Assembly (NCBI GenBank): GCA_039621445.1
Contig: CP154954.1
Coordinates: 44,123,847 to 44,187,846 of the forward strand
Direction: 5' to 3'
DNA: 64,000 nt
DNA from: Euglena gracilis
Lineage: Eukaryota
Shown here: positions 10,449 to 64,000 of the stretch, one piece after another
Numbering within the stretch: the stretch's first letter is position 1
Layout: the number at the start of each line of letters is the position of its first letter
Position numbers and translations under genes: made by a program
The notes under the pieces: generated by a model
The model's database searches: none
What the model was told of the DNA's origin: nothing
Seen by the model: the letters and a program-made list of their open reading frames with translations, nothing else

Positions 10449-11300
10449 GTACCACTGGGGGTTGAGTCCAGCCGTTGCAGCCCAACACAGGGTCGAACCG
10501 AGGTCCTTCCCTGGCCAGAGAAACAACAAACCGGCCACCCAGCAGACCTGCAGCCCGTAGGCAGACTACAAGTGTTTTAACAGCAGCAATGTTAGTATAC
10601 GCCCTCGGAGCTGGAATTACCGCAGCTGCTGGCACCAGACTTGCCCTCCGGTTGATACTCACGGCTGTCTTTGGATAGCGTCCATTCCAAGCCCCATCGG
10701 CACGTAAGGCCGACGGGGTTGCTACTGTTCGTCGCTGCCTCACAGACTGTCTTTGCATGGGGCAATTTGCGTGCCTGCTGCCCACCTTGGTAGTGGTAGC
10801 CGTCTCTCAGGCTCCCTCTCCGGAATCGAACCCTGATTCTCCGTTACCCGTCAAGGCCACTGTGGTCCGATACACCACAGTCAAGCTGATAGGTCAGAAG
10901 CTCTTGCGATCAAGTGGGGCATGCACGAGGCATGCACGAAATCCACCAGCACTGCGGCCACGGAGGGCCAGCCTGAGTCAACCATGCCAACACACTGGCC
11001 TTGCGGCCGCTGGTCTTCGTATCAGCTGGGCATACATCCGCCACCACCGGTGAAGGGACTGTCCGGAGACAGGATCCCTGCCGAGTGTTGCATGGCTGAC
11101 TGGGTCGAACGTGTATTAGCCACAAGGTTTTGGTGGATGTCCAATGGGGTCCTTGCAGGTGGACCGAGCACACTCTATCACGTAGATGACTGCTGATGTA
11201 AGGAGCCATTCACAGATCCACTGTCACTCCGTTTGCGCTGAGACGTGCATGGCTTAGCCCTTGAACAAAGCATATGACTGCTGGCAGGATCAACCAGATT
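10449..11300 (-). rRNA. SSU (18S) rRNA, 5' fragment (about 850 nt, broken in V4)
   Basis: Minus strand starts AATCTGGTTGATCCTGCCAGCAGTCATATGC at 11300 and contains GTGCCAGCAGCTGCGGTAATTCCAGCTCC. It stops abruptly at 10449 against AT-rich non-rDNA sequence. Confidence 0.95.
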
Positions 11301-13045: not shown

Positions 13046-14147
13046 ACCCACTCTGTCAGGTCGGCCCCAGCAGGGGCAGCCGAAGCCACTCCCTGCAGAA
13101 GCCCGGCCTTGGAGCTCAACGGATCGGACAACACAATCGACTGGTCGGATGATGGCCACACTTTGCTGTGTCCTTCCCTGATCGGTGCTGGTATAACCTC
13201 TGAACACTTACACTCGCCGCAGATCCAGCCTGGTCTGGGCGGGGTGTTGGGTCGGCACACCCCGTTGACTGTTGGCTCTAGCTGGTGGGATCGATGATGC
13301 TCTGCCTTCGTTGCACACGCCTTGCACAAAACCGTCACTCTCTGTTTTCGGCTTCGGTCAGGCAGCAGCCCACCGAGGGCAAGCCTGCTGGGATGCTTCA
13401 CCCGGAGCACAACAACCGTGTTTGGTCTCTGTTTGTCCGACCGGCAGGAGGCTTGCAGCCTGCCCACTCAATGTTGCCATCTCGCAGGCCTGCACACCAC
13501 ATCCGGTGCCGGCAATCACTCCGGAAGACACTTGACGCACAGGCTTCACACGACGATGGGTCACACTCTCCAGACAGTCAATGCTCAGCTGTGGCCACTT
13601 GCTTTGCCAGTTCAGATCCAGTTGGTGTTGGCGCAGACCCAGAAGGGTACTGCTCTGCCTCGATGCTCCACAGATGTCCCTTCGGTTGTTGGCTGTCGGG
13701 ATGGGCAGCTTGCAGGAACTTGCCTTGGGGTTGCACACGCCTCGTCGGCAGGGGTTGCTCCACTTGGAGAATTGCACACACTGATTCACCTGGCTGGTTC
13801 AGCCCACAAACACAACGGGTTGGCCGTTCAGGCATGCTGTAGGCCTGGTCTCGGATTCAGGCTTAAGATGCGTCCAGTCAGTATCCGTCACTTGGTAGCT
13901 TCACTACACCAGTCGCTCGACTCACGGTGGAAACCAGGGGAGTGCCACAAGGGTTCCTCTCGTACTACCATGTGATGCCATTGTCACGCCCATCGCACTG
14001 GGAGACGATACACTTCACCCTCCGGAAGGGGTTCGGAGGCTGTGGTGTGGGAGAGGCTTCACTCTGGTGGCCCACAACAACAGCTCCTGGCCCCCGGGGG
14101 CTGCAGTAAACTACGCACAGGTTGCTCTGTCTGTGGCAGGAGGGTAA

Positions 14148-14191
<44 letters not shown>

Positions 14192-14240
14192 GTTGGTGGG
14201 TGAACAATCCAACTCTTCCACTCGGCTGCGGGTGGGAAGC

Positions 14241-14272
<32 letters not shown>

Positions 14273-15077
14273 GACGTCGCTTTGAACGCTTGGCAGCCAC
14301 AAGCCAGTTATCCCTGTGGTAATTTTTCTGACACCTCTGGCTTCGATATCCAGAATTCGCACACTTGACCAAAGGATCGTTAGGCCACGATTGCACGTTT
14401 CGGACTCGTACTGAGAGTCGCAGCATCAGCAGCACCTTTGGCCTTCTCCTCCCTGGGAGATTTCTGTTCTGCCTGAGCAATGCTTCAGGACGCCTTCGTT
14501 GTGTTGTAAAAGGCGTGCCGCCCCAGCCAAACTCCCCAACTGATCGATGTTTCGAGACTGCTGATCGGACTGTGACACGTCCAGAGTCGTCCACAACAGA
14601 GACTGCTGCAGACTTGGTGCATGAATCGGGGAAAGCCACGATCCCACCACAAGGGCAGGGTCGATGTCCAAATGGCCACCGCTCTCTTGCAACTCGATGA
14701 GTAAAACAACGGTGAAGGTAGTGGTATTTCACTGCAGGCTCGCACCAGATTATCTCTTGGCGTGGGTCAGCCAGCACTCCGAAGAGAGAGGCCTCACCAT
14801 TGCCGTCTCCAGCACACACAACTGACCGTAGGGCAAGCCCTCTTCTCCACTCGGGGTTGTTGCCTTAGGCAGTCGGTGGCCTTCGTTGGTGGCACTCACC
14901 TCCCACCTATGCTACGCCCCACATGTTGTTGCACAGTATCAAACTAGAGTCAAACTCAACAGGGTCTTCTTTCCCCGCTGACACATCCAAGCCCGTTCCC
15001 TTGGTTGTTGGTTCACCAGACAGCGACTAGGGACAGCAGGAATCTCGTTGATCCATTCATGCGCGTCAATAATTGGT

Positions 15078-15138
<61 letters not shown>

Positions 15139-18100
15139 GCTGAATCTCTTCGCATTGACAATCAGAGCACTGGGCAGAAGTCACCTCACGGAACCAGCCA
15201 GCTGGTCCCTTCACAAAGCTGGGTTTCAATTAAACAGTCAGATTCCCCTGCACAGCAACAGTTCCACACGAGCCACTGGTTAGTCAACAGGTCGGCCCTA
15301 CAGGCCACGAGGACCCGAAGGGTTGCCCCTGTCCGGGATGAAGCAGAGGCCACGGCGAAGACAGCCCCGCAGAACGGCCCCGAGAGGCCATCCCACAGGG
15401 TGATCGACCGTAACTCCCACAACCCCCACGACAGGGCCTGCTGACTTGGCCTCTGGAGCCACCGTATCTTCCAAAGGTGCACGGCCAGTTTGCCGACTTC
15501 CCTTAGCTGCATTTCGTCCGTGGACAAGCGACGTCTAGTCGAGGAGACCGGCTGCGGTGATGCAGTACGGACACAAGGGTCCTGAGGCACGAGAATCCTT
15601 CAGGCTGTTCATTGGAACCAGTGACTGCCACTTTGCACACACTTTGACACGTTCGACTTTGTGTCGGATGTTGTAATCAGGACTGCCATCGGTGTGGAGA
15701 CCACACCGCCTTGCTGAGCGAAGGGCATACACCACCATCTGTCATGCCGATCGATAGCCCGCGTGAGTCTGCATCAGGAGGAAACGAGAACTCCACAGGG
15801 GATTCACTGGTTCGATGCCTGGAGGGGCTGCCTTGGGGGTGTCGCCACCGACCCGAAGGGACCTCTAGCCCATGACAGTAGAATCTTGCTCGCACTTGCC
15901 TGTTTGCCATTCCTGCCCGATGCTCTGCTCCTCTCTCAGCTCCCCTGCAAGGGAATCCAACGACGGGGGCAGCTTGGTTGTTGCTCTCTCCAGTGGCATG
16001 CACACCACGTCGAGGCCCCACCACAGGGGTTGAGGTCAGGCAGATCGAGGCAGCTTTGGTTGTTCGGTGAACTTACCACTTGGCTCACGGTCGGTTGACC
16101 CACATTCAACGGCTGTTTGGTGTGGAAACCTGCTCCACTCCAGTCCTCAACCGCACACAGCGGGGTTGTGTTGCCACTCCTCTCCAGGTGGAGTACTCGC
16201 TACTACAACCAAGATCTGCTCTGGGCAACGCCTCAAGCCGGGATCAATCCCAACACGATCAGCTGTTGTCCATGCCCTTTCTACACAACGATGCTCTGCC
16301 TTGGCTGCCACATCGATGGCAGACTGTAAGGGAGACACACTGACTTGGGCACCATCCATTTTCGGAGCTGCGCACTTCGGCAGGTGAGTTGTTACACATT
16401 CCTCAGCGGGTTCCAACCTTCATGGCCACCGACCTGCTATCCGTAGTAAGCAACATCCTTTGTGGGATCTGAGTATGAGCCAGCACTCGGGATCTGTAAG
16501 TCTGCTCTCGGAGCACCCCGCATCACCAGCACTGCTTACCAGTCATGGTCCACGTAGGATCCATTGTTCAACGACAGTCTTGCAACGACTCGTTCACTGG
16601 GATCGAACCACGAAGGGTCCGGGTAACAGTCGGGGGACAGCCTCGAGGCCACCGTTCTGCCATTGCCTTCCCCTCTGGAGCTGGGTTCTCTCTGCTTCAC
16701 CCCAGAGGATCCGGGTCTGGCTTGGGGTGCCACCGACTCCCTTGGCCTGACCCCACGACACGTCACCAGCAACGTACAGCCAGTTGCAACTACGGGACGA
16801 ACATGCTCAGAAGACGGGGAGAACTGCTGTTACACAGCCTCCTGTCGTGGCAAAGAAGCATGCCTGGGTTGTCCGCACCCATTCACAGTTCGAGGATAGG
16901 TTGAGGAGCTGGGCTCCCCAGGGTTGGCCTCTCATGCGTTGCTTTACCGGATGCAACCAGTCACATACAAGCTTTGCATCATTGGATCCCAGCTATCCTG
17001 AGGGAAACTTCGAAGGGAACCAGCTACTAGGTGGCTCGATTGGCCTTTCACCCCTATGCCGCACTCAGGCTACACAATTTGCACGTCAGAACAGCGACCG
17101 GCTTCCACCACAGTTTCCCATGGCTTCACCGTAGAACGGTATAGTTCACCACCTTTCGGGTCCCAAGGACCTTGCAAGCACTCGAAACCCTGTCCACTGG
17201 ACTTCGGGTCCGGTCGTTCCATGCAGAGACTAGCCCCATCTGGAAGGATAGTTGCCTTCACCACGCCTCAGAAGAGGTTTTGGATCAGCCATCCGACTGG
17301 CAAGCTCCTTAGACTCCTTGGTCCGTGTTTCGAGACGGGCAGAGAGCAGCACTGCAAGGAGGGGTGCCAAGCTCTGCTGCCAATTTCTCACTGGGGTCAG
17401 GCTGGGGGACGGTGCAGCCAGCAAGGGGACCACCGTCAGAACGGTGCAGCCCCCGGTGCAGCCAAGCACACCCCGAATCCAGCCCAACCACCAGCGACCG
17501 ACATGTCCGAAGACACACCGGGATCGAGGACAAGCAGCAACAACCATCGACCGGCATCGAACACCCGATGCAACAGGGCAGTGGTGTGGGAGGCCTCTGG
17601 CACACTCTGCTTGGAGACCGTTCAGCCACACAACAAGACCACCGTTGACCGGGGTCGGTCCGTCACGATTCCCACACTTGGTTGAATGTCTCACTCGCAA
17701 ACTCCAGGTCCTGGCAGGAGGCCCGCGTGCGGGGGGCGGTACAGGGGACTGGGGGGGGGCTGGGGGGTGGGGGGCGCTAGCGGGGGGGGGGTGGGGGGGG
17801 GGGGGGTGCGGGGGGGGGTGGGGGTAACAAAAAAAAAAAAAAAAAAAAAAAAGCTGCCACCACGGGGCGGCCACGATAGTCATCCCTGTCCGGAGACAGG
17901 GGCTCGGTGGCCAGCCCTGGGCTGACCCAGAGACGCTTGGTCAGATCTAGAACGATACAGCACTGCACACCACCGATCCTGTTGCGGCTTCAGGGACTTT
18001 TAACCCTCTTCGCGGAGTTCTTTGCATCCTTCGATCACTCTACTTGTGCACTATCGGTCCCAGGTCTGTATGCCACCTTGTGACGGATACACGTCACTCT

Positions 18101-18497
18101 TCAAACTGCAGTCCCAAGCCACTCTACTCGGGGATACAGCCAGCCACATCCCAGTGATCCCAGCACACGGTTCAGCCATACGGGACAGTCTCCCTGTTTC
18201 GTGGGTCCATTCCAGGACTCTTCTTGGTACTGGGAAGCACCGAGACACAGCCAACTGCTCCATAGCCCACAGGGTTTGCTGGATTCCAACGAAAGCCGAT
18301 CGAGATGCACCACAACCCAGGCACCACACGGGTGACCTAAAGTCGGGGTCCTCGAGTCAGGAAGCCCATTTTCAGGAAGAGCCGTGGGTCCTGCTCGTTC
18401 ATTCGCCATTACTGCAGCAATCGAGGTTGCTTGCTGTTCCTCCACTGAGTGATATGCTTAAGTTCGGTGGGTCATTCCATGTGCGCCAGGTCACACG
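13046..18497 (-). rRNA. LSU (28S-equivalent) rRNA region, fragmented euglenid type with internal spacers
   Basis: Minus strand shows ACCCACCGAACTTAAGCATAT near the 5' end, CCGTCTCGAAACACGGACCAAGGAGT, TAACTATGACTCTCTTAAGGTAGCCAAATG, CACAGGGATAACTGGCTTGTGGC and sarcin-ricin-like AGTACGAGAGGAAC (about 13953-13966). A 3'-terminal helix-like segment sits at about 13050-13130. Fragment boundaries not resolved. Confidence 0.92.
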
Positions 18498-18831
18498 ACC
18501 AGTTGTAGGCAGAGGGCCACTGGGACCTTGCCTGTTGACTGCCCATCTCTGGGCCGAGGGACCGACAGTGGTTCGAGGCAGATGCATCGTTGCTTGGGAG
18601 AGCCACAAGTTTCAGCCATCGGTTACTGGGGCAGGAGCCGGAGGCCCCTGCACCTCGACCGTGCCACACCTCCGTTGCATCGGTCGATCGATCCACTCGG
18701 ACAGCCAACAATCAACACACCGGCAATGGCATCGACCTGGCAGGGCCAGGCAACACCACCACCGATCATCGGAGCACCACTTGGGGAGAGGGGATCATTG
18801 CCAGCAATGGATCCACCTGCTCCCGTCCATC

Positions 18832-18994
18832 CAACACTGGCGCACAGGCAGCTCGGGGGGGAACCCCTTGCTGGCCAGTTGCGTTCGAAGCTGTTCCTTT
18901 GTCCAGATCACAAGACTCTGCGTATCACCGAACGTATCGCAAGGCTGCTGTGTCCTTCCTCAGAACCTGGGCCAAGACATCCACCACAACAGGT
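18832..18994 (-). rRNA. 5.8S rRNA (LSU1)
   Basis: ACCTGTTGTGGTGGATGTCTTGGC...GAGGAAGGACACAGC...TTCGAACGCAACTGGC is a 5.8S-like pattern, about 330 nt upstream of the LSU 5' end. Confidence 0.85.
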
Positions 18995-19077
18995 AAGCTC
19001 TTTGCCAGACGACTCCTTCGACCGTGACTTCATCGGAGGGTTGGTCAGACCCTCTCTCACCCAGCCTCGGGTTTGAC

Positions 19078-19613
19078 CCCCAGGCATACTAGGCATTCCA
19101 CGTTCAAGGCAGACAGTTGCAACCATCTATCCCCAGTACGTCACAGGCTTGCAGGATTTCCCAGCCTCTTCAGGCCAGGGCCCACCGGAGTGGGCATGTC
19201 GACACCTTCACTGTGACAATGTAGTGCGCGTGCGGCCCAGGACATCTGGGAGCATCACAGACCTGCTGTTGGCTCTAGCATGCATGCCCTTTGTGGCGGA
19301 CACAGCACCTCAGAGAAGCTGAACTGGAGGCTCTCGGGAGCATGCACCGGTACATCTCCCCCTGTTGCCAGGGGGCTGCCACCGAGCAGCCGAACCCTAC
19401 CAAATGCGAGCCTCAGGCTAGTGGGAGGCAGATGTCTCACTCGTTATCGGAATCAACCAGACAAATCACTCCACCAATCAGGAGCGGCCATGCACCACCG
19501 TCCACAAGATCAAGAAAGAGCTCTCAATCTGTCAATCCCAGTTGCGTCCTGACCTGGTAACATTCCCCGCGTTGAGTCAAATTAAGCCGCATACTCCACG
19601 CCTTGTGGTGCCA

Positions 19614-19647
<34 letters not shown>

Positions 19648-20311
19648 AGTACTCCCCCCTGAACCCACAGGCTGTGGATTTCTCGTTGTGGGAGGAGTGG
19701 CCCTGACAGAGTCTAGGATTCTTGCTCTGCCAAGGCCTGGCCGGCATCGTTTACAGTGGCCGGACTACGACGGTGTCTGATCATCTTTGCTCCCCGAACT
19801 CTCATTCTTGATCGACGGACGTGCACTTGCAGAACGCCTTCGCTGCAGTGGATCTGGCAGCGATCTAAGAATTTCACCTCTGGCGCTCCCGTATCTTTCA
19901 CCCCGAACAGTCCCATCACTTACGATCGATGGGTGCAAGCTGCAGGGACAGGGGACGAAGCCTGACGAGACCCGAAGGCCAGGCAGGGCAACGATCCTGT
20001 TGATCCTGCAGGAACACACCACCAGGTTGTCCAGAGTGGGCCCCAAGGCCAGCACAACTCCAATGCCACACTTGGTCGATGCCTTGACATTCCATGGATG
20101 GACATTCAGCCGTCGCGGGGATGCTTTGAGCACACTGAGTTTTCCAGGGTGTCGAAGACGGTGGGCTCCGGTGGTGGACCAGAGGTAGACTACCCAACTC
20201 GAGGCTGGGTCCCCTGTTGGTGTCCGTTGCCAGTGCGGGAGGCATAAACCGCTTTGGCCTGCAATGAAGCAGACTTTTGGCAGGAGCAGATCTCACCATC
20301 GACTGAGAGGT
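19078..20311 (-). rRNA. SSU (18S) rRNA, V4-to-3' fragment lacking the 3'-terminal part
   Basis: Contains GAGGTGAAATTCTTAGA, AAACTTAAAGGAATTGACGG, GGTGGTGCATGGCCG and GCACGCGCACTAC. It ends after GGAATGCCTAGTATGCCTGG with no GTACACACCGCCCGT or 3'-end motif. Confidence 0.92.
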
Positions 20312-23300
20312 AGATAAACAATAAAAATACTGGGCCAACCGTAGTTTCGGGCCAAAAAACAGGGGGCCGAGCAGTGAAAATTTTCAGAAAAAAAAAGGTT
20401 GGACAAATGTTAAAAGTTTTTATTTGTGCGACCAAAAAAGCGCCCAGTTTTTTTGCATTTTGTGAAGTCTATTTCACAAACTTCAAAAAAAATTTCAAAA
20501 CCATTTTGCGGGATTTCGCAAAAAGAAGTTTCTGACTTTTCTGGGGGAATAATTCATCTTCATTGTCTGCACGTGGCTTATATTTTTCCCATCTGGCCCA
20601 AAATCTATGTTTTCCAAAGTTTTAGGTTGTGTGTTGTGTGTGGAGCAATTTTGAGGGGTTTACTCGAGAAAAAGGTGGAGGAATTGAGGGTAATGAGTGG
20701 ATACTTTTTTTGTCGGGTATTTCACAGGCCACTATATGACGTGATGATGGGAGAGCAAGTTTGCACGAGTGTCAAACTTTCAGGAGGCTTTGCACACAAA
20801 AAAATCCAAAATTTTTGAAAAAAATTTTGGGGCCAAGCTAGACAAATTAAGGAACCAAGTTTGAATGGAAGGAGGAGGGGAGCCAAACTCTGGGGGGGGG
20901 GTCTATGCATACGTTGGTACCTGAAGATTGACTCCCAAGCCTTAACCTCCGCCCAAATAATAATAAATAACCCCACCCACGCCATGAGACACCCCCAACC
21001 TTGGACGTCATTTGGGGATTTTCGGTCCAACGCCAAATTTGATGCTGTTGCCCGGTGAGATTCAATTTGATTTTGGCATTCTTTTAGTCATTTGGGCCTT
21101 TTTTGGCGATTGCAGAGATCAAAGGGCAAAGCTGAAAACAATTCCTCTTCTCCGTGGTTGGTTTCCTCCTTGGAGAAACTTAATACTAAAAAGAAAACCC
21201 TCTGAACACGTTCATAAATAAGAGAGAATCTCATTCATAATTGCTTGTAGTTGTTTTGGCCATTTGATCATTCGGCGTGATTATTTGTGGTTTTGGAAAA
21301 TCCTCAAAATTGTGCTGGTTCCTGATTTGAAGAAATCCCCAGTACCTAACGATTAAGCACACACCTCTTTCAATTGAGTTTTTTTTCTAACATCTTTCAT
21401 TTTTTTTCTGTCTTTTTCCCCACGCCTCATTCCAAATTTGCACTGTTTCATTATTTGCGAAGCAGACATCGTTGCACACCAAAAAAGGATGGGAGTAAGA
21501 AAAATACTGCTGTCCAAACCTTCAAAATTCAGCTACCAAGAAGGTTGGGGACCGTGGATTTGGGGGACTGATAATATTATGGGGGAGCACATGGCTGGCT
21601 GACGGCTGGCCGACGGCGTGACGGAAGCCGGGTCATTTTGTTTAGCTGACTTTGGGTAACAAATGCCTAATTTGGTGTGCCAGTGGGGAATTTTGAGAGG
21701 CAAATTCCTAATTTAGTGTGCCAATTCCTAATTTTCGCAGGGGGGTCTCGGGGAAGGGGTCACGGGGGGAATGTGGCAGTTTTGACGGGTCACATGTGAC
21801 CAGTGTGACCTCACATACAATGTTATATGGGACCTATTTTTAGAACTTTTGGTTTAGACATAGATTGAATTAGGAATTTATCACACATTTTATTGGCAAT
21901 TTTGATTCCTACCCTCCCCCCCCCCCTATGTCCAACGACCAGTAACCTCTGTCCTCCGACCGGGGGGGGTGGTCGTTGGACATAGGGTAGTGACCAAAAA
22001 GGTGTCCTCTGACCGGGGGGGTGGTTGTTGGACAAGGGGTCAAAAAAAATGTTGGTGGGTAATTGGGACCCCACCCCCCAAATAAGGTCAAATTTTCCCT
22101 TCCAGCGCTTTGCGCCGAAAATTTTGGGCAATTTTGACAAATTTTTGTCCAAAAAGTGCCAAAAAAAAAATGGCATTTTGGCCAATTTTTGACCGATTTG
22201 GGGACACAAAAATTTTCGGCCCGGTGCTTCGCACCGGGACCAAAATTTTTGCCAAACCTCCAAAAAGGTGTCCTCTGACCGGGGGGGGGTGGTCGTTGGA
22301 CATAGGGGGGTCGTTGGACATAGGGGGGGGGGGGGGTAATTTGGGTGCCAATCCCTGATTGGGTGCCATTTTTGGCTCCTCCTGCGGAAACCCTCCATGT
22401 GTGGGTCGGGGGGGGGGGGTCGTGGGGGGGTCACGGGGGATACACCCTCCATTTCACACAAAATTTGAGCCTTTTTTGTCCATTATCAGGTAAGTTTTGC
22501 CAGTCCATTGAAAATGGGACACCCGTTGAGCAATTTTAGTTATTCGATTAATTTGTGAACAAAAATCCACACAATGACAAGAGAATGACCCAAAAAATAG
22601 GCCAAAAGGTCAAAATTGGTCAAAAAAAGTCCAAAATTGGCAAAATTGACAAAAATTGGCGAAAAATGACTTCAAATGGACAAAAATGCAGCCTCCACCA
22701 ACGATGAACATGACCTTGAAGGGAGATTAACGGCGAACTTCTGAATTGGCTCGGGTCATTTTCCTGTGAGTCACACGGCTGGCCGACGGCTGGCCGACGG
22801 CTGGCCGACGGCGTGCTCCCCCTATTAGTTGGGATATATATAAAAAAGGGCCTTGTGGGGCTGTGCTCCTCCACCAAATCCACTGTTCGCCGTCCACATT
22901 GACAAAAGACACCAAAAGTCATTACCTGAATGGCTACAGTTGTTACAAAAAAAATTGTTGTGCAACAAAAAATTTTCCATTTAAGGCCATTTTAGGCCAT
23001 TTTAGGCCGTTTTAGGCCATTTTAGCTATAGGTGCTTGGACGCAGGGGAGACACCCCCCATGGGTGACCATTGGCACCCATGACCAATCATGTGTGCCCA
23101 ATGCCAAAAATGGCAAGGGTGGTCTACTCAGGTTCAACCCCCCCCCCCGATCCAGTGCAGATGATCGGAGGTGCGGGACCCCCCCCCCTTCCCAGGAGCC
23201 ATTTTTGACCCGAAAATGACCTCACCCCCAAATTCCAAAAAAAACCCTCCAAATGCTCAAAATATCAATAAATTTGATGTTTTAGAATCCAATTCTCCAA

Positions 23301-27476: not shown

Positions 27477-28705
27477 TATACAAAAATCGACCGACACTAA
27501 CAGATTCAGCAGGGGCGCCGGGCGCGAGCGAGCGAAGCGAGCCGCCCGGCGCCCCTGCTGAATCTGTTAGTGTCGGTCGATTTTTGTAAAACCTATTTTG
27601 TCTGGGCCCGACGCCTGTTTTGAAATTCATTCGACCGAACTGCCTGGGCGGAAATATGGCCAAAAAAGTGGTTTTTGGTCCATTAACGGGCGCCTGAATG
27701 GAAATCGACTGACATAAACGGGCGCCTGAATGGAAATCGACCGACATAAACGGGCGCCTGAATGGAAATCGACCGACATAAACGGGCTCCTGAATGGAAA
27801 TTGACTGACATAAACGGATTCCGATGTCATGGAAATCGACCAACCTTTTGTGTCCTTTTCTGAATGCCTTTTTGTTCCGTTTTGGGACATTGTCAATTTC
27901 AACCTGAAATCCGTTATGTCGACCAACCTTTTTTCTCATTTTTCTGAATGCTTTTTGCTTCCATTTTGACAGAACAGAATAATAACAATAGAAATTCCAA
28001 TACAGGCGTCGAGCCCAGAAAACAGGTTTTAACAGTTGCCACCCCTCACCAGAAAGCTTTTCTTTCAGACGACCAGCGATGACAACTGAATCGGGCCAAA
28101 ACATTATAATCGAAAGTTCCGTCCTTCCGTCCGTTCCATCCAAAATTCAGCCAGCTGTGATCACCTGACCCCCTCCCCCTCCCACCCCCTCCAAAAAAAA
28201 TTCATCCAAATATGAACAAAAATGATTCGAAACCCACCCAAATGCCTTCTAAAACCCCCAACCCGACCACCAATGGTCAGTGGCCATGGTCGCCAGCGAC
28301 TAGTCGCTAGCGACCATGGTCGCTAGGGACCAGTCGCTAGCGACCACCAAAAAATCTATCACCAGTTTCCCGCAATGAGCCGCAAAATTTGTTTTTTTGT
28401 CTGGTCCATAACGCCTCCAGAACCCCACAGGGCCAAAAATGTCGAAAAAAAAGGGAAATCCAAAATGTCCAAAAGTCACTAAAAATTCCCAATCTGACCA
28501 GCAACAGATTTCAATGGAATGGAAATCGACCGACATAAACGGGCGCCTGAATGGAATTGACCGACATAAACGGGCGCCTGAATGGAAATCGACCGACATA
28601 AACGGGCGCCTGAATGGAAATCGACTGACACAAACAATTTCAGGCTGAAATCCGTTAATGTCAGTAGAATTTCAAGACAGGCGTCGGGCCCAGAAAATAG
28701 GTTTT
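27477..28705 (-). mobile_element. Hairpin-ended non-autonomous element (Helentron/Helitron2-like architecture), copy 1
   Basis: Perfect 46-bp stem hairpin at 27479-27588, asymmetric inverted repeats AAAACCTATTTT(G)TCTGGGCCCGACGCCTG and 32-bp tandem repeats. An empty-site paralog GGTTTCAACAACTG lies at about 26563. Confidence 0.7.
28170..28381. mobile_element. Truncated terminal fragment related to the 57806-63581 transposon
   Basis: GTCGCTAGCGACC repeats and the terminus TTCCCGCAATGAGCC, identical to the end at 63581. Absent from the paralogous site at about 55960. Confidence 0.7.
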
Positions 28706-40520: not shown

Positions 40521-40680
40521 TATCCAGCCCTGCCCGAAAGTACCATCTGCGCCAAAATTTCCATCCAATGTGCCCCCCCCCCCAAACTACCATGCCCCCC
40601 TCATATAAGACCCCCTGGCCAGCCGAAGGGCGGCCCTTTGGCCGGGACCGACCCCCCCCCATATAAGACCCCCCCTCTTA

Positions 40681-53099: not shown

Positions 53100-55165
53100 T
53101 GGGCAAAAGGGATTTGCCCCCCAAATCAGTTGCGTTACATACATCAGGTGGGTTAAATCAGGTGGGTTACACAAGGGATTTGCCCCCCAAAACGGGTGGG
53201 TGACACAAGGGATTTTGTTATTTTGGGGCCCTGGAACAGTTGGGCAACAAAAGGGATTTGCCCCCCAGATCAGTTGGGCAACAAAAGGGATTTGCCCCCC
53301 AAAACGGGTGGGTTCCACAAGGGATTTTGTTATTTTGGGGCCCTCGAACAGTTGGGCAACAAAAGGGATTTGCCCCCCAAATCAGTTGGGCAACAAAAGG
53401 GATTTGCCCCCCAAAACGGGTGGGTAACACAAGGGATTTTGTTATTTTGGGGCCCTCGAACAGTTGGAACAAAAGGGATTTGCCCCCCAAAACGGGTGGG
53501 TAACACAAGGGATTTGCCTCCCAAAACGGGTGGGCAACACAAGGGATTTTAGGTCGACTTGCACCCGAGAAGGGGTTGGCAGATAAAAGGGGTTGGCAGA
53601 TAAAAGGGGTTTATTTTGTTAATGAAAGGGATAGGGTTAGGTCGACTTGCACCCGAGAAGGGGTTGGCAGATAAAAGGGGTTTATTTTGTTAATGAAAGG
53701 GATAGGGTTAGGTCGACTTGCACCCGGGAAGGGGTTGGCAGATAAAAGGGGTTTATTTTGTTAATGAAAGGGATAGGGTTAGGTCGACTTGCACCCGAGA
53801 AGGGGTTGGCAGATAAAAGGGGTTTATTTTGTTAATGAAAGGGATAGGGTTAGGTCGACTTGCACCCGAAAAGGGGTTGGCAGATAAAAGGGGTTTATTT
53901 TGTTAATGAAAGGGATAGGGTTAGGTCGACTTGCACCCGAAAAGGGGTTGGCGGATAAAAGGGGTTTATTTTGTTAATGAAAGGGAGGGTTAGGTCGACT
54001 TGCACCCGAGAAGGGGTTGGCAGATAAAAGGGGTTTATTTTGTTAATGAAAGGGATAGGGTTAGGTCGACTTGCACCCGAGAAGGGGTTGGCAGATAAAA
54101 GGGGCTGGGTTACACAAGGGATTTGCCTCCCAAAACGGGTGGGTAACACAAGGGATTTTTTTTATTTTGGGGCCCTCGAACAGTTGGGCAACAAAAGGGA
54201 TTTGCCCCCCAAAACGGCTGGGTTACACAAGGGATTTGCCTCCCAAAACGGGTGGGCAACACAAGGGATTTTTTTTATTTTGGGGCCCTCGAACAGTTGG
54301 GCAACAAAAGGGATTTGCCTCCCAAAACGGGTGGGCAACACAAGGGATTTTTTTTATTTTGGGGCCCTCGAACAGTTGGGCAACAAAAGGGATTTGCACC
54401 CCAAAACGGCTGGGTTACACAAGGGATTTGCCTCCCAAAACGGGTGGGTAACACAAGGGATTTTGTTATTTTGGGGCCCTCGAACAGTTGGGCAACAAAA
54501 GGGATTTGCCCCCCAAAACGGGTGGGTAACACAAGGGATTTTGTTATTTTGGGGCCCTCGAACAGTTGGGCAACAAAAGGGATTTGCCCCCCAAAACGGC
54601 TGCGTTACACAAGGGATTTGCCCCCCAAAACGGGTGGGTTCCACAAGGGATTTTGTTATTTTGGGGCCCTCGAACAGTTGGGCAACAAAAGGGATTTGCC
54701 TCCCAAAACGGGTGGGTAACACAAGGGATTTTTTTTATTTTGGGGCCCTCGATCAGTTGGGAAACAAAAGGGATTTGCCTCCCAAAACGGGTGGGTGACA
54801 CAAGGGATTTTGTTATTTTGGGGCCCTCGATCAGTTGGGAAACAAAAGGGATTTGCCTCCCAAAACGGGTGGGTGACACAAGGGATTTTGTTATTTTGGG
54901 GCCCTCGAACAGTTGGGCAACAAAAGGGATTTGCCCCCCAAAACGGGTGGGTAACACAAGGGATTTTTTTATTTTGGGGCCCTCGAACAGTTGGGCAACA
55001 AAAGGGATTTGCCCCCCAGATCAGTTGGCCAACAAAAGGGATTTGTCCCCCAAAACGGGTGGGCAACACAAGGAATTTTGTTATTTTGGGGCCCTCCAAC
55101 AGTTGGGCAACAACAGGGATTTGCCCCCCAAATCAGCTGGGTTACAGAAAGGATTTGTCCCCTAA
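53100..55165. repeat. Composite tandem array of AAGGGATTT-anchored modules
   Basis: Shuffled modules AAGGGATTTGCCCCCCAAAACGGGTGGG, AAGGGATTTTGTTATTTTGGGGCCCTCGAACAGTTGGGC and AAGGGATTTGCCCCCCAGATCAGTTGG, interrupted by the 71-bp array. Confidence 0.9.
53551..54104. repeat. 71-bp tandem repeat, about 7.5 copies
   Basis: Unit AGGTCGACTTGCACCCGAGAAGGGGTTGGCAGATAAAAGGGGTTTATTTTGTTAATGAAAGGGATAGGGTT, starting at 53551, 53639, 53710, 53781, 53852, 53923, 53992 and 54063. Confidence 0.95.
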
Positions 55166-56874: not shown

Positions 56875-57805
56875 GAAACTGGCAACAAAACGTCCTATGT
56901 TAAAGAAAGAGACCCTAATGAACTTAGTCGGCCTACGGCCTCCTCCGGGGGGGCCGACCGCCCCTCCCGGACCCCCCCCGCCCAAAATAACAATATCCCC
57001 TTGTGTGTGCAAGGCAAGGGTGGACAAAACGCGCATCCTAACAAAATCTTTTTGTGTGTGCAAGGCAAGGATGGCCAAAACGCGCCCCCCAACAAACTCC
57101 CTTTGTGCTAACTTAGTCGGCCTACGGCCTCCTCCGGGGGGGGCTACCGCCCCCCCCGGACCCCCCGCCCAAAATAACAATATCCCTTTGTGTGTGCAAG
57201 GCAAGGATGGCCAAAACGCGCCCCCCAACAAACTCCCTTTGTGCTAACTTAGTCGGCCTACGGCCTCCTCCGGGGACCAATTTTAATTCCACCCCCCCCT
57301 GAAAATTTTTTTAAGCCCCCCCCCCAAAATTTTTTATCCAAAATGCCTTCCAAAATTTCGGGGTTCAATGAATTCAGGCGCCCCCAACAAACTCCCTTTG
57401 TGCTGACTTACTACGGCCTACGGCCTCCTCCGGGGGGGGGGGGTGCTGCCGCCCCCCCAGACCCCCCCGCCTAAAATAACAAAATCCCCTTGTGCATAGG
57501 TGCCGGATCAATTTTTTCTTGGGGGGGGCGAACATTCCGCCGAACGCCGAAGACTGACATATGGAACCGCAACCTGCTACCCGAACAGGCTTCTTTTTAA
57601 GTCACCTGACCCCCCCCCCCCCGGGGGGGACGGGGGGGGGGTGGGTGGGTCCGGGCCGGACCCCACCCCCCGGGGGGGGGGGGCCCGGGACAGAGGCGCC
57701 GGGTATACCATGCCCCCCTCAAAATAAAACCCCCACTCGGGCGCCAAAATCCCAGGGGGGGGGTCTTATATGGGGGGGGGTCTTATATGGGGGGGGGTCG
57801 GTCCC

Positions 57806-60800
57806 GGCTCCGAGCGGGAGATTGGCCATGGGACTTTTGGTGGTCGCTAGCGACCGGTCGCTAGCGACCATGGTCGCTAGCGACCGAATTCTGGCGACCG
57901 GTCGCTAGCGACCGTTGGTGGTCGGAGCGACCGGTCGCTAGCGACCACCAATAATTCGACCACCCCCCCCCCCTCAGAAAAGTTTTAAGCCCCCCCTGGG
58001 CAGGAAAATTTTCCCCCTGCGAAAGCCATGAAATTTTATATCAAAAGTTCATTATTCTGCTTTTAGGATCTTGCACGATGGCACACAATGTTTACGTTAC
58101 TATGAATTGCATTGGGGACGTGAAAGCCGCAAATGCGCTGGCGTGTAATTGCGCATTGCGCAAGGGCAGGCATTACGCCTGCGACGTGTGCCACAGGGAA
58201 GGAGCAGAGTATGCAGTTCAGCCATCCCGCTGTCTTTGTTTGGGTGAAAACATGAAGGAGAAAAACGACAATGCACCTGCACTGTGGTTATTGCATTCTT
58301 TTTCGCGGGCAAATGTCTGTGGTGTTCTGGACGTTGTTCCAGATGCAGGAAGGGGAAATTCTTGTTCTGACCCTGGTTTCCCCTGGTTTTGTACAGTCCA
58401 TCCATGCAACAACAGGCAGGGATGCGGTTGTACACCTACCTACATTGTGCAGCATCTGGAGGTGCATATGCGTGGTGGCGTCCGTGTACGGCCTGTTGTT
58501 CCACAAGCAACACGTGTTGGGGCGGGTGGGGTGCAGTCGCACCTCCCTTGGCCCCCCCACCAACAACGGTTGGTGATGCAGCAACACCTCCGTCTCCGGG
58601 AAGTCCAACCATGCTGACAGCTGTGAGTGCTGAACCGTCTATTGCTGTCCCTCCCTCTCTCTCTCTGCCATTTCTTAGTGCTTTTAATCAGTGGCTGCCG
58701 TAAACCAGCAACAGTGCAGTTTCTGATGAAATGTGTGTTTGGGGGGGGCAGCAACGTCAGGCACAGCAGCAATAGCCTGTTGTGGACTCTGGGCCACAGG
58801 AGTCACTGGAACCCCTGACTGCAGATGCAGCCAATGGACTGGAATGTGCTGCCCCCACACACTTGGAGCCACAGGAGCCATCTGCTGCGGTCGCAGCAAA
58901 TGCGGAGAACAGTGGGGCGGATCCTGCGGCACCTACTGGTGAGCAACGAGCTGTGCGTGCGCCAACCCAGGCCATTGCGTTTGGGGATGGTCTTGTTGAA
59001 AACGTAAAATTTCTGTTTAAATTTATTTTTGATGAAAACGTAAAAACATGGCAACAGGCAACATGGCCACATGTGTTACGGTTTTCTGTTCAGTTTGCCA
59101 CGTACCAGGCGAGCTAATCAGTCCATTCCCTTCCCCAACACAAATTTACTGGGTGGACCCTGAGGGCAGACCTGCCGCGTTGGATGGCACGCTGTCCACA
59201 TGCGGTCGACATGGAGGTGCTTGTGTTTGGCGACGATGGGGGTATTTTCCTGGCCGGCTGCTGACATTGAACGGGCCGATACCGGTTCGTATTCAACGTT
59301 ATCAATGCTCTGTGCGGTCTTCAAATCCACGCGTGCCATTTCATCACCCATGCTTCGAGCCAGCCGTGCAGGAGTGCTCCCAACCCCCCCCCCCCCACTG
59401 CCGGTTTGCACATGCATTCAGCGCCTTCACAATCTGGTCTGTTTTTTTTGAATCTGGCAAAATGTGTTAACAACACTCCTGTCCATATCCAAGCGGCACC
59501 TGGGACAAAGCCATCCATCCCATGCCTGCATGTGGGTGGGTACTACGTAACCCCTGACTTGCTGAATTTTATCTGGAAAATGTTCATTGGCACGAACGTG
59601 GCACCTATTGATATTGGCAGGACCATCACTTTTCTGTGGCACGGAGCCCTCGAGCGGCAGGGTGTACGAGGAAATCCCGCTACGTTTCAACGCCGTTTGG
59701 AGAGGGAGCTGGCGCTGCACAGCAGCATCCTGCCCAGTGCGCGCGTGTTTCGTCAGTGGGCCTACAAAATGTGGCATGTGCAGCAGCACTGGAATCAGAG
59801 TTTTTCTATCAGCCCACAGAACAACAATAGCCCCCCCCCCCCAAGCGTGGTCCGCTTTTCTGTTTGCCACTGGTTTTTCCTTTTGTGCCTCATCCAAATC
59901 TGTGGGTCCAAGGTCAGGAGGGAAACTTTTTCTGCATTGGTCATCATCATTCACATTCACATTGGCTGCATTGAAAAACCCCTGTCTGTGACGTGAAGGA
60001 CCTCGACACCGAGGTCCTTGCTCTCGAGGGCCAATACCTGAAATTCGATTACACGTACCGCGCGGTGGGCAATATCTGGGTTACTCGGCCCCCGCCTGCT
60101 ACAGCGGACGGTGCTCAAGGTGAACGCGCAGAAAACGAGACGGACAACAAACCAGATGTAGTGGAGCTGTCTTACGTTTTGGGTACAGTTTTTGGAACGA
60201 CTGGCCTGGTGCTGAGCACGTTGGTGTGCGCAACAGAGAAAATGGAGAACATGGAGGCCTGCTTCCGCAGTTGCTTTCGCAAAACGCGGGTACCCCCAAA
60301 ACAAATCTGCGTTGACGATTGGGAGAAGTGGCACAGTCACCTGCAGGCTTTGTTACTGGATGTCTTCGGACCGGAACCAGGCTTCTTTTTCACTGTGCAA
60401 CGTTTTTTTTTGGGCAATGTTCTGCACTGGTTCGTTATAACCGTCTCTGGGTGTTTTTCTGGTCGTGCAACCCTCCCATGCACCAATGGCTGTGGTCATC
60501 AAAAAGAGGCAAGCACACAGCATGGCTGTGTTATTACGCAGGATTTCCGCCATTGGAAGGAGCTCCTGCTGGCTCCCATGGATCACCGACACGCACAGTT
60601 TCACACTGTTAAAGCGGAGGTGGAAAAGCTGCGGAAACGGATGGACTGGAAAGAGGACCAGGAGGGGGCCATCACAACGGGACCTGAGTTGCGCGACGCT
60701 GTTCAGCAAATTCTGGCCACGTACAGCGATGGCGGTCCTGGCCGTGCACTGTTGCTCCGTGCGGGGGCACTGGAGCAACACCTGACGTTCGACGTTTGCG

Positions 60801-63581
60801 CATCCCTTGGTGGGGCTTTGGGTGGTGGGTTTTTTGACGTGGACATGAAGGCGCTGACCACGTCACACGGAAACGAGGGGTTGTTCAACGATCGCGTGAT
60901 CAGCGTGTGGGAAAACAAACTGGGACCAGGGCTTCACGTTGCATGTTTCGGGGCTGTGTTGCGTGTTTGACAGTTCACCCCCTCCCCTTCTTCCATACGT
61001 ATGCCCCCTGATGCTGGCAACCGCCATACTTCGATGCAGTCATCCGCCTGCGGGACTGCCCGCCGTCGGCGTCGCCTGGGACGAATTTGGCAGAGTCATT
61101 CCACAGTCGGCTGCGCGCCGACCATGAATTGTCGGGGCGGAAAAACTACAACACTGCGCTGGTGCGCATTGACATGGTGCTGCGTCGGTACAATTATGCT
61201 CTGGTGAATGCGCAGTACGCAGATGCGAACCGCCCAGAGGTGGAGGAGCTTGAGGACGAGCAGCCTGTGGCACGACACCGGCGTCGCATTCGTGACGTCG
61301 ACGGCGGGGTCGGTCTGGCCAACACACACCTCTTGAGCAGCTTCGGGTTCGACTCTCTGCGCGGCGGCGCAGAATTCATTGCCTTGTTCTACGGCATGCA
61401 GAGGGCAGAGTACCACGGCACCACCATGCACGACCTGGAGGCCAGGGGATTCGAGATCCGAATCTCCCAGAAAACACCCCTGTTTAAAGAGGAGAAGCGC
61501 GCCATCAAGAAATCTTTGGTAGAGTTGTCAAACGAGGGGGCGGCCGCCCTTGGGCGGTACAAATACATTGGCAACCATGCATCTTGTCCCTGGTTGGGTG
61601 TCCCTGGTCCCTGTCCCAGGTTGTGCTGGTTTGCAAGGGTGTGGGTTTGCAACGGTCTGTCAGTCGTGGGTGTCGTGAAACCTCTCCCGATGCGCAAACA
61701 ATGCACAGATGTATGCTACAAACTGGCTGTCCCGCGTTGTCCTGAGGGGTACCCGATCTCCAAACAGTGTCGCCCGCTACCTGCGTGCATTAATTAAAAA
61801 ACTGCATGCCAAATCTGTGGCGGCACGGCAGACCGTGCACCCCTGCCCAGATAACCTGACGCTCACCCAGCCGGATGAGTGTGGGGACAGCGAGGACGAC
61901 GGCGAACCCACGTCACTGTTTTCCCCGCCCCGCGACGGAGGGGGGTTGGGGGGGTGTCGCTTCACTGTTGACAAAACTGACGGGGTGCCATTTCCTGCTC
62001 GGGGAATGTTCGTGGGTTGGAGGTTTGTTGCAGCCCATTCAAACAGTGCAGTTGTCTCAGCTGCACCCCTCTGATGCAGGTTTTTTATCATGTCCTGGCG
62101 GGAATTGTCTGAACTAATTGATCCAATTTCGGGTTATATTCATCCCACGCGGCCCCGGCGACGTCGGCAGGTGTGTTCACAGCCGAATGTGGTTGTGAAC
62201 AGGTCACCCTCCCCAACTTTTACGGAGGCGGAACTAGACTCCGTCAAGCAAAGCAAGCAAAGCGTGCGTGCAGCACGTGCTCCTCGGGCACCTCGGAAAC
62301 CAAGGGCTCCGCGAAGCACAAGGAAAAGGGCACTACTCAAGGTTTGGGGATTTATATCATTCATACATTTCAGTTTCTCACGCATTTCAGATGGCGCAAA
62401 TTACTGAAATGCACGACTCTGATTGCCCGGAAAGTCCGGATATGCTGCGGCACGGTACGTGTCACCCTGGGGGGGGGGGGGGGGGCCTGTTTTCACGGTT
62501 CCCAGGATACGAGCCCTGTGAGGGGGAGGCAGACGAAAGCGCAATACATAACCCCGATGCCCAACCTGTCTGTGATGAAGGTTTGTCACTTTGGGCCGTC
62601 CGGGGAATTCTGTTTTTACGTGTTGCCGCAGATGATGCAATTCCCGCACCCGGACCTCCTCCGCCACCAGCTGCAGGGGCAGCTGCTTCGCCGGGTGATG
62701 TGTCCTCCTCAGAGGACGACACCGTCTGGTCACAGTGTGACCTCCCACAATGGGCCCCACGCCATTGCGCGCGGCCCAAATATTAACAGCCCAGCACACT
62801 TTTTCCAAACAAGATTTGCGCTTTGCCAGTCCGTGCGCTTCAGGTCCTGGGTCGGTTACCCCCCGGAGGGGATTTTGTTATTGGAGGGCGGGGGGGGGTG
62901 CGGGGGGGGGCGGCAGTCCCCCCCGCTAGACGACCAAGGGCGCCGAAGGCGCCTTAGGACTGTTTGTTTACGGTGCGCGTGGCATTACATGCGCGCCTGG
63001 CCCTGGGTCGGTTACCCCCCGGAAGGGATTTTGTTATTGGAGGGCGGGGGGGGGGGGCGGGGGGGGGCGGCAGCCCCCCCCCGCTAGACGACCAAGGGCG
63101 CCGAAGGCGCCTTAGGACTGTTTGTTTACGGTGCGCGTGGCATTGCATGCGCCCCTGGCCCTGGGTCAGTTCAGCCCTGGATAGTGTGCTGCGTCCCTGC
63201 GGCCGCTGTTTCCGTTTCGCTGTTTTCGTTTCCGTTTCTCCCTTTCCAGAGTTTACACTCTCGATACAGCAGCGGTTGTTTGCCTCTGCATCCTGGTCGC
63301 TGCCTGTGCATGCGCGCCCACACACACAGCTCTGCTGGCGGCCCAGAATGGCAGTTTCTTTTGCCCGACAGTAACATTTTGCATTTCATCCCAATGGGGG
63401 GGGGGGCTTAAAAATTTTCGGAAGGGGGGGGGGGGGTCGAATTATTGGTGGTCGCTAGCGACCGGTCGCTCCGACCACCAATGGTCGGTCGACCATGACC
63501 AACGGTCGCTAGCGACCGGTCGCTAGCGACCGGTCGCTAGCGACCACCAAAAGTCCCATGGCCAATTTCCCGCAATGAGCC
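57806..63581 (+). mobile_element. Putative autonomous DNA transposon (MULE-like structure, DxxH-type DDE transposase)
   Basis: About 190-bp imperfect TIRs GGCTC..ATTGGCCATGGGACTTTTGGTGGTCGCTAGCGACC / GGTCGCTAGCGACCACCAAAAGTCCCATGGCCAAT..GAGCC. Perfect 9-bp TSD GTCGGTCCC at 57797-57805 and 63582-63590. An empty-site paralog lies at about 40632-40660 on the reverse strand. Confidence 0.9.
58078..62786 (+). CDS. Intron-containing DDE transposase with N-terminal C2H2-like zinc finger (3' end approximate)
   Basis: Motifs LKFDYTY (D 60047), QICVDD (D 60314), QDFRH (DxxH 60542-60553) and GTNLAESFH (E 61093). Frames are joined by predicted nonconventional introns at 58211-58435, 59793-59989, 60375-60533, 60924-61015 and 61573-61720. 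Further introns are unresolved. Confidence 0.8.
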
Positions 63582-64000
63582 GTCGGTCCCGGCCAAAGGG
63601 CCGGCCTTCGGCCGGCCAGGGGGGGGTCTTATATGGGGGGGTCTTATATGGGGGGGGCATGGTACCTTTTCGGCGCGAAGCGCCGAAATTTTTTGAAAAT
63701 TGCCTTTAACGTGCCCGATTTTGGGGGGGGGGTCCCCGGACCCAAATGTTCAATTAAGGGGGGGGGGGGTGAAATAAGGGGGGGAGTGGTAACGTGTTTG
63801 TTATCCACAAGAAATTTGCAGAACCACAAAACGGTCACAATTACCTCAATTTTTATCAACAAAAAGCAAAGGTTTTTACCACGTGCCACCCGCAGGGTAG
63901 CGAAACGGTGGCCATTTTTCTGTATAGAAAGGTGAAATGGTCACATGAAAATCTTTTTAAGATTGGACCCCTGTGGAGCGTGGGTGCGCTGGACTTGGGG

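Follow-up and report, generated by a model that had tools for sequence, protein, structure and literature searches.

Within a 64,000-nucleotide (nt) stretch of Euglena gracilis DNA (contig CP154954.1; hereafter the window), we found that positions 57806-63581 are best read as one copy of a multi-copy Mutator-like element (MULE/IS256-type), a cut-and-paste DNA transposon with nonconventional introns in its single long gene, a reading to which we give a probability of roughly 0.72. This gene would encode a DDE transposase preceded by a zinc finger at the N-terminus. In its conserved part, introns would number at least five (in order along the gene F, B, E, C, and D); segment A and, probably, two further introns of the GT-AG type would lie near the start. 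Introns B, C, and F would carry the code N3-CAG...CTG-N5 followed by a purine, with D as a paired-end variant (CAT/ATG). Introns E and C would separate the two catalytic aspartates from the glutamate, with C shifting the frame, so that active enzyme could arise only from a transcript processed by the nonconventional splicing of the host. An earlier sequence-only reading had proposed A to D as nonconventional introns splitting a transposase; the positions, end sequences, and flanking bases it described were recovered as listed below, and none of the four is GT-AG, as it had said. Its list was incomplete, in that F, E, and the probable GT-AG introns near the start had been missed. The features of the element, as predicted here, are the following:

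57797-57805, no strand: left copy of the target-site duplication (TSD), GTCGGTCCC, the same 9-mer standing directly outside both ends of the inverted repeats.
57806-57996, plus strand: left terminal inverted repeat (TIR), starting GGCTC and holding five copies of the palindromic 14-mer GGTCGCTAGCGACC.
58078-58210, plus strand: first coding exon, containing the ATG and one half (CxxC) of a zinc finger, HYACDVC; HY-C-x2-C is common to homologues P0005 and P0020.
58211-58435, plus strand: segment (intron) A, in frame, 225 nt, ATGCAG...TTGTACAC, signature CAG/TTG, next exon base C; borders uncertain.
58436-59365, plus strand: N-terminal coding region, tentatively modelled, with the second half of the finger (H-x3-H), a linker rich in Pro/Ser/Ala, and a conserved exon.
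58623-58775 (GTGAGT...AG) and 59004-59113, plus strand: tentative GT-AG introns, taken from candidate lists.
59366-59486, plus strand: intron F, additional to the sequence-only reading, 121 nt, GTG CAG...CTG TCCAT, then A; 8-bp end stem; frame change.
59487-59792, plus strand: exon in the frame of open reading frame (ORF) 59271, matched by P0004 and P0005 in tblastn.
59793-59989, plus strand: intron B, 197 nt, AATCAG...CTGTCTGT, divided as AAT CAG...CTG TCTGT, then G; fits the code; frame change.
59990-60374, plus strand: exon with the candidate catalytic D and DD, from alignment A1.
About 60375-60520, plus strand: intron E, additional to the sequence-only reading, in frame in this copy; borders uncertain.
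60521-60923, plus strand: exon in the same frame as 59990-60374, from tblastn and alignment A1.
60924-61015, plus strand: intron C, 92 nt, GACCAG...CTGATGCT, divided as GAC CAGGG...CCCTG ATGCT, then G; fits the code; frame change.
61016-61572, plus strand: exon with the candidate catalytic E, from tblastn and alignment A1.
61573-61720, plus strand: intron D, 148 nt, AACCAT...ATGCTACA, divided as AAC CATGCATCT...AGATGTATG CTACA, then A; 9-bp end stem; junction slides by 0-3 nt.
61721-62074, plus strand: last conserved exon, with the stop at 62072-62074; P0019 matches 61724-61813 in tblastn, and alignment A1 covers it.
63400-63581, minus strand: right TIR, starting GGCTC, with four copies of the 14-mer GGTCGCTAGCGACC.
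63582-63590, no strand: right copy of the TSD, GTCGGTCCC, a perfect 9-bp match to the left copy.

Three independent lines, namely homologue alignments, substitution bias, and the placement of insertions and deletions (indels), indicated that B, C, and D, together with the additional F and E, interrupt the coding sequence. When uninterrupted homologues were searched against the window by tblastn, collinear matches were obtained with a frame switch at each gap (59222-59377 in frame 2, 59502-59786 in frame 3, 60026-60925 in frame 2, 61027-61599 in frame 1, and 61724-61813 in frame 2). The junction peptides claimed for B, C, and D (QHW/DVKD, NKLG/QPPYF, and YIG/NWLS) were reproduced; each of these three removals joins different reading frames, and A is in frame and stop-free. 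At the D junction, the spacing GRYKY-x2-[DNR]W in alignment A1 is exactly that of P0005, P0011, and P0019. In the same alignment the C junction is one residue short of the homologues and the B junction one residue long, with W-x12-EG in the window versus W-x11-EG in the homologues. In the region 59990-60922, about 47 residues are missing from all homologues covering the site, and this marks intron E. Single-base differences among other genomic copies served as variants, 131 in all, and among the 40 listed 31 are exonic. Of these 31, 26 lie at third codon positions and 26 are synonymous when each exon is read in its own frame (binomial p ~1e-8 for the third-position bias). Taken by exon, the synonymous third positions amounted to 2/3 listed variants in 59487-59792, 4/4 in 59990-60374, 4/4 in 60521-60923, and 4/4 after intron D in the new frame, and in 61016-61572 11/13 are third positions and 11/13 synonymous. 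Selection thus acts on a protein in five different frames, and the need to remove B, C, and D for a conserved protein, as the sequence-only reading had held, is borne out by the homologue alignments and these frame-specific variants.

The indels followed the same division. Between 59140 and 61921, all six indels with lengths not divisible by three fell in F (2 nt at 59384), B (59831 and 59865, of 1 and 17 nt), E (1 nt at 60412), or C (+1 nt at 60928 and at 60987), and a single indel, +3 nt at 61024, was seen in the conserved exons. The others of this kind are in the N- and C-terminal parts (58524, 61948, 62013, and 62359). The frame changes are not explained by programmed frameshifting (recoding), which was ruled out by the 92-197-nt unconserved segments that stand between conserved blocks. 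Comparison with other copies of the family located interruptions at the same places, at C in P0001 and P0003, at B in P0017, and at E in P0002/P0039. Compared by eye, the sequences of P0003, P0038, and P0039 (98% identical) and of P0001 (61%) run on through the C interruption and enter the following exon in the wrong frame; at B, P0017 (86%) carries a shorter and unrelated sequence. In P0002/P0039 (94-98%), the E region compared by eye is 26 nt shorter and has a stop in the upstream frame and a frame shift, and E must therefore be spliced in that copy, though it is open in the window. P0001 is without E and keeps the interruption at C.

These comparisons bear on whether the window copy is simply a dead, decayed element whose frame breaks are insertions or frameshifts instead of introns. 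Such decay would be in keeping with 5 nt at 58524 that every DNA contig across the site lacks, with the near absence of RNA reads, and with the highly repetitive DNA that surrounds the transposon. We regard it as very improbable, in that the same interruptions recur in other lineages (P0001 and P0003 at C, P0017 at B, P0002/P0039 at E) and decay would ignore exon frames, whereas the flanking exons show a third-position bias in their own frames and the frame-breaking indels avoid the exons. This particular copy may be defective even so, while the family is under selection.

The reading as nonconventional introns was judged against the junction patterns in print. The consensus has CAG at +4 to +6 and CTG at -8 to -6 with paired ends (Milanowski et al., via PMC11282704), and also CCAGG at +3 to +7 and CCTG at -9 to -6 (PMC11170887). 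The genetically tested code of Nomura et al. 2025 is 5'-N3-CDG...CH'G-N5-6, then a purine, with inward pairing; it covers 61.2% of nonconventional introns and leaves 38.8% of the annotated ones outside, and single-base changes in CAG or CTG abolished splicing in a knock-in assay (PMC12501133). The sequence-only reading was thus right that the junction consensus is established (PMC11282704, PMC12501133), and its description of the pathway as poorly understood is partly outdated, the sequence code having been defined genetically in 2025. Excised nonconventional introns were reported as circles with full-length joined ends (PMC11282704).

Measured by this code, B, C, and F conform; they are 92-197 nt long, and their junctions have little or no freedom to slide. 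CAG stands at +4 to +6 in A, B, C, and F and CAT in D; CTG with a 5-nt spacer ends B, C, and F, as compared with TTG in A and ATG in D; and the first downstream exon base is a purine after B (G), C (G), D (A), and F (A) and a pyrimidine (C) after A. The intron ends are AT..AC (A), AA..GT (B), GA..CT (C), AA..CA (D), and GT..AT (F). The assignment of all four original segments to the euglenid consensus consequently held for B and C and failed for A and D, which lie outside the experimentally defined code. Terminal stems in register were 8 bp for F, 9 bp for D, 5 bp for C, 5 bp for A, and 3 bp for B. Folding energies of the terminal 10 nt, calculated by the method of PMC11170887, were -8.5 (F), -6.4 (C), -4.7 (D), -2.1 (A), and -1.5 (B) kcal/mol, against a background of random pairs in which 39% reach -2 or lower, 19% -4 or lower, and 8% -6 or lower. 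In the minimum-free-energy fold of intron C, +4 to +8 is paired with -10 to -6. The complementary ends that had been claimed were found in C and D, which pair from +4 onward with positions up to -6 and leave 3 + 5 end bases unpaired; in B the pairing is shifted by three bases and in A it is loose. We hold the nonconventional-intron reading to have good support at C, D, and F and reasonable support at B, with A tentative and the borders of E uncertain.

Some of the interruptions might instead be conventional or "intermediate" spliceosomal introns with nearby GT/GC-AG borders. Intron F begins with GT, and frame-compatible, stop-free GT-AG pairs are available for F (59366-59510), B (59778-59998 and 59778-60013), E (60395-60520), and A (58209-58415 and 58216-58419). 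The two N-terminal GT-AG introns are plausible, and genes with both intron types are reported as common (PMC12501133). This alternative is nonetheless improbable for the segments in question. At C, none of 400 frame-compatible pairs is GT/GC-AG, and the proposed intron is the only pair among them that conforms to the code; at D, the one conventional candidate (GC-AG) would leave 6 more residues at the junction than three homologues have. GT-AG borders at F and B would cost residues conserved in homologues (AV.. and the second W) or worsen the spacing. The borders given for F are those of the best code-conforming candidate at its site. For B, ten further code-conforming and two GT-AG alternatives exist, and homologue spacing favours 59793-59989 as its probable extent. 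At E, the candidates 60375-60497, 60381-60512, 60378-60515, and the GT-AG pair 60395-60520 gave no clear winner.

Segment A calls for separate treatment. Comparison with P0005 and P0020, which have 14-16 residues between CxxC and the histidine versus 87 in the unspliced window (by eye), indicated that some insertion is present at this site. Removing A yields C-x2-C-x12-H-x3-H, the canonical C2H2 spacing, as had been claimed; the "exact" spacing is the product of one choice among many borders. Alternatively, A could be coding sequence inserted in frame, or a loop, at the zinc finger, or its intron borders could lie elsewhere; we hold this to be the less probable but a serious possibility. The segment is open and in frame, and it fails two features of the code. 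Its terminal pairing is weak, at a level that 39% of random pairs attain, and A has several competitors with GT-AG borders or longer stems; of the 916 in-frame pairs nearby, 106 have at least 3 bp of register pairing. A coding insert of 75 residues would, however, destroy the spacing kept by P0005 and P0020, and removal of A restores it.

In the rest of the N-terminal part, a conserved exon runs from about 59114/59140 to 59365, with residues 248-298 of P0005 matching 59222-59377 in tblastn, and between 58436 and 59140 dozens of conventional and nonconventional intron candidates compete. An open frame extends from the ATG at 58078 through 59792 if the 5 nt at 58524 are omitted and both tentative GT-AG introns are removed; with the 5 nt kept, a stop follows the finger at 58615-58617, barring the use of another intron. 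These 5 nt are either a frameshift private to this copy or an error of the assembly. At the other end, conservation in the last exon ceases near 61921, and the 1- and 5-nt indels among copies at 61948 and 62013 suggest that the part after about 61930 is without coding constraint.

The anatomy of the transposon, like the frames under selection and the positions of the interruptions, is shown by the data. The 9-mer outside both TIRs defines an element of 5,776 bp (57806-63581), bounded by the inverted repeats and the 9-bp duplication. The TIRs are about 190 nt long (176 identical of 210 columns in a global alignment of the two ends) and contain two inverted pairs, I1 (88 nt, 94%) and I2 (65 nt, 94%). 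The 14-mer GGTCGCTAGCGACC occurs five times in the left and four times in the right TIR versus 0 expected by chance. Three degenerate copies of it, with 1 mismatch each, lie distant from the transposon at 28302-28345, possibly the remnant end of a related element. The pre-insertion site is readable across the 9-bp duplication within a host repeat. This host repeat is marked by GGGGTCTTATATGGGG and was observed at 57760-57792, at 63623-63653, and at 40599-40672 on the minus strand, with 6 matches of GGGGTCTTATATGGGG in the window versus 0.01 expected.

In two DNA runs of the same organism, 456 (X1) and 149 (X2) contigs matched the inner 4.8-kb stretch at 90-100% identity, many of them with single-base variants. 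One contig joint leads from 58333 to 61920 and skips 3,586 nt, and another leads from 60286 to 62623 and skips 2,336 nt, with 4 filler bases; these joints represent internally deleted, presumably non-autonomous derivatives of the family. Judged by the contigs, variants and deletion joints together form the pattern of a multi-copy family with such derivatives. The transposase protein itself is present in a single copy in the window by tblastn. As a separate observation, the summed contig depth in run X1 was about 10,370 at 57997-58158 versus 76-2,774 (mostly 400-2,000) over the remaining element, and a short derivative present in far greater numbers may have this 5' subterminal region in common with the element.

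The element is read as a divergent Mutator-like transposon with a DDE transposase because a DDE fold match coincides with the 190-nt TIRs and the 9-bp TSD. An exhaustive HMMER search of 1.84 billion representatives with the 311-residue exon gave 22 homologues at E<=1e-3, all of them unnamed proteins. Five are apparently uninterrupted (P0004, P0005, P0011, P0019, and P0020; 445-1309 residues) and have no transposase Pfam domain. A word-index search of longer proteins with the 311-residue exon found none, and the same kind of search with residues 230-860 of P0005 recovered only P0005. In 30 other long ORFs of the window, Pfam found 0 families. An AlphaFold model of the full-length homologue P0005 (900 residues) was built on the 20-row alignment A1. 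Averaged over 10-residue blocks, the predicted local distance difference test (pLDDT) was mostly 71-93 at about residues 400-580, where two blocks at the flanks had 58 and 56, and 63-92 at about 630-710, and the order of strands and helices in the model is that of an RNase-H-like fold. The top Foldseek match of this model was ISCth4 of the IS256 family (E 1.8e-4, probability 1.00), followed by the P element and Hermes transposases. With VIA-align, the model gave Z 13.2 over 281 aligned residues against ISCth4, Z of about 12 over 130-140 residues against retroviral integrase cores, and Z 11.5 against Hermes. The motifs FDxTY, DDxxKW, and GTNxxE are conserved in alignment A1 and place the catalytic candidates of the window at D 60047-60049 (FDYTY), DD 60314-60319 (VDDW), and E 61093-61095 (GTNLAESFH). 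The model and the motifs indicate an RNase-H-like DDE catalytic core, and transposase activity is predicted. Neighbours in the ESM Atlas include several MULE clusters with scores of 0.79-0.88, which serve as leads only; the ranking by fold is likewise a lead on whether the core is nearer to MULE than to hAT, P, or other superfamilies. The claim of a transposase inside a transposon was accordingly upheld by the TIRs, the 9-bp TSD, the predicted DDE fold, the many diverged copies, and the internal-deletion derivatives. Two homologues have unusual architectures: P0011 (1309 residues, on a 1.47-Mb contig of another organism) has a long tail after the core with a weak SET-domain match at the tail end (Pfam E 0.011, below the cut-off), and P0037 has a 430-residue N-terminal extension. 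Fusion, or domestication in other eukaryotes, may account for these forms.

A number of findings weigh against the reading of the element as a MULE-type transposon split by nonconventional introns, and they are gathered here. On the transposase side, Pfam recognised 0 families in the 8 ORF pieces of the window, and membership in the MULE (PF10551) and Transposase_mut (PF00872) profiles was tested with no match at E<=1 in these 8 pieces and 6 homologues. A profile search of PDB sequences returned nothing meaningful (best E 1.3). The P0005 model has a mean pLDDT of 55 over the whole chain, and P0005 is only 36-41% identical to the main exons of the window (22% for the exon at 59502-59792). On the intron side, D is correct in its geometry and pairs in a 9-bp stem but, with CAT/ATG, falls outside the genetically defined code; A fails the code at two features (TTG and a pyrimidine exon start); and B has weak terminal pairing (-1.5 kcal/mol) and its ten code-conforming alternatives. 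The extra 5 nt at 58524 (-58529), in a G-rich run, are missing from all covering X1 and X2 contigs.

How rare the signature is depends on how tightly the search is constrained. The published motif alone is matched by 11,768 conforming pairs of 40-1500 nt within 58000-62800 (4.8 kb). With search windows of 30-60 nt per side, random placements elsewhere in the 64-kb window did as well in 17 (F), 45 (C), 77 (D), 82 (B), and 244 (E) of 600 trials, and the signature is hence not rare under such wide windows, a point against the reading. Within +-3 nt of the junction indicated by homology, the corresponding counts in 5000 placements were 2 (F), 9 (C), 44 (D), 109 (B), and 310 (A), a rarity that speaks for the introns F, C, D, and B, the rates for F, B, and C being optimistic because the centre was partly chosen by the motif, and the centre for D coming from homologue spacing alone. 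It follows from the number of conforming pairs and the wide-window rates that the introns are predictable only with homology as a guide. The claim that they are predictable from sequence is thus true where homology narrows the search and false for the code alone, which cannot annotate genes and needs homology or RNA beside it.

The RNA data completed the opposing evidence. In runs X21 and X24, of which 5-6% of reads were sampled, no joint was found at any predicted intron, and of the 71 (X21) and 23 (X24) reads placed, 69 and 21 fitted only in part. Depth was concentrated in two bins that hold poly-C/poly-G runs, and expression is neither shown nor excluded by these runs. We infer splicing of these introns from constraint on the DNA and not from observation.

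The element resembles Mutator/MULE and IS256 transposons in several respects: its TIRs are long (about 190 nt), its TSD measures 9 bp, and its one predicted DDE transposase has a zinc finger at the N-terminus and a wholly helical insertion that separates the second D from the E. ISCth4 (PDB 6xg8/6xgx), the solved example of the IS256 family, is the best fold match. MULEs make target-site duplications of about 9 bp (range 8-11), and the TIRs of classical MuDR are 100 bp or more. The GTNxAESxH around the E resembles what we take to be the "TNxxES" signature of MULE/IS256 transposases. Unlike Mutator/MULE, the element has no PF10551/PF00872 match, belongs to a family of unnamed proteins only, and has many euglenid-type introns. 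No printed description of this transposase family was found in the full-text literature on Euglena Mutator transposases, supplements not being covered, and the E. gracilis assembly paper, in its available part, gives 4.60% DNA elements and 32.73% unclassified repeats and does not name families.

The need for intron removal invites comparison with the P element of Drosophila, a DNA transposon whose active transposase likewise requires it and whose transposase is a weaker fold match here. The P element is regulated by retention of its third intron. The suggestion of the sequence-only reading that splicing may regulate the element draws on this analogy; it had further suggested that such splicing would hide the transposon from standard annotation. 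In this transposon there is no sign of splicing that is regulated or confined to a tissue. As for the code of Euglena nonconventional introns, B, C, and F follow it with further pairing, and D (CAT/ATG) and A (CAG/TTG, pyrimidine exon start) depart from it.

Nonconventional introns make up 71.8% of the introns of Euglena agilis (PMC12501133). To find them in a multi-exon euglenid gene is expected, since they are the majority class in Euglena and the code is published. The splicing code and MULE-type transposons are both known, and their combination is an expected one, seen here in a transposase family without a name, for which a worked gene model is now provided where Pfam recognises nothing. 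Among the searched protein collections, close relatives (at least 86% identity) are only fragments of 118-263 residues that run into introns. A transposase with D/D and E on different exons could be made only where nonconventional splicing exists.

The paralogues also offer material for studying intron gain and loss. An origin from miniature inverted-repeat transposable elements has been proposed for euglenid nonconventional introns (PMC11282704). The introns of this family are like introners or transposon-derived introns in their short inverted ends and in that E is present in one family lineage and absent in P0001. The length of E differs by 26 nt between copies that are 94-98% identical. 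When the six introns (A, F, B, E, C, and D) were searched by blastn, no other copies were found in the 64-kb window, only self and poly-C matches. It is conceivable, though we think it doubtful, that nonconventional introns are still being gained or lost within the transposon family; if so, a multi-copy transposon would provide dated replicates of how, and how fast, such introns arise, and its spread would be tied to a lineage-specific splicing system.

The window contains other repeats. One containing GGGATTTTGTTATT was observed at 19 sites (17 on the plus strand and 2 on the minus strand), including two copies just inside the right TIR at 62869 and 63025, and it forms tandem arrays at 53-55 kb (e.g. 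53209-54882) with a GC skew of up to 0.375. A ribosomal DNA (rDNA) unit lies among the repeats on the minus strand at 10594-20411 and is circularly permuted. Its order is small-subunit (SSU) positions 623-1113 and 1170-1649, 5.8S, the large subunit (LSU; 13815-18493, 1549 bits), and SSU positions 4-605 (10594-11297). The unit resembles a circular rDNA that was opened within the SSU gene and inserted into the chromosome.

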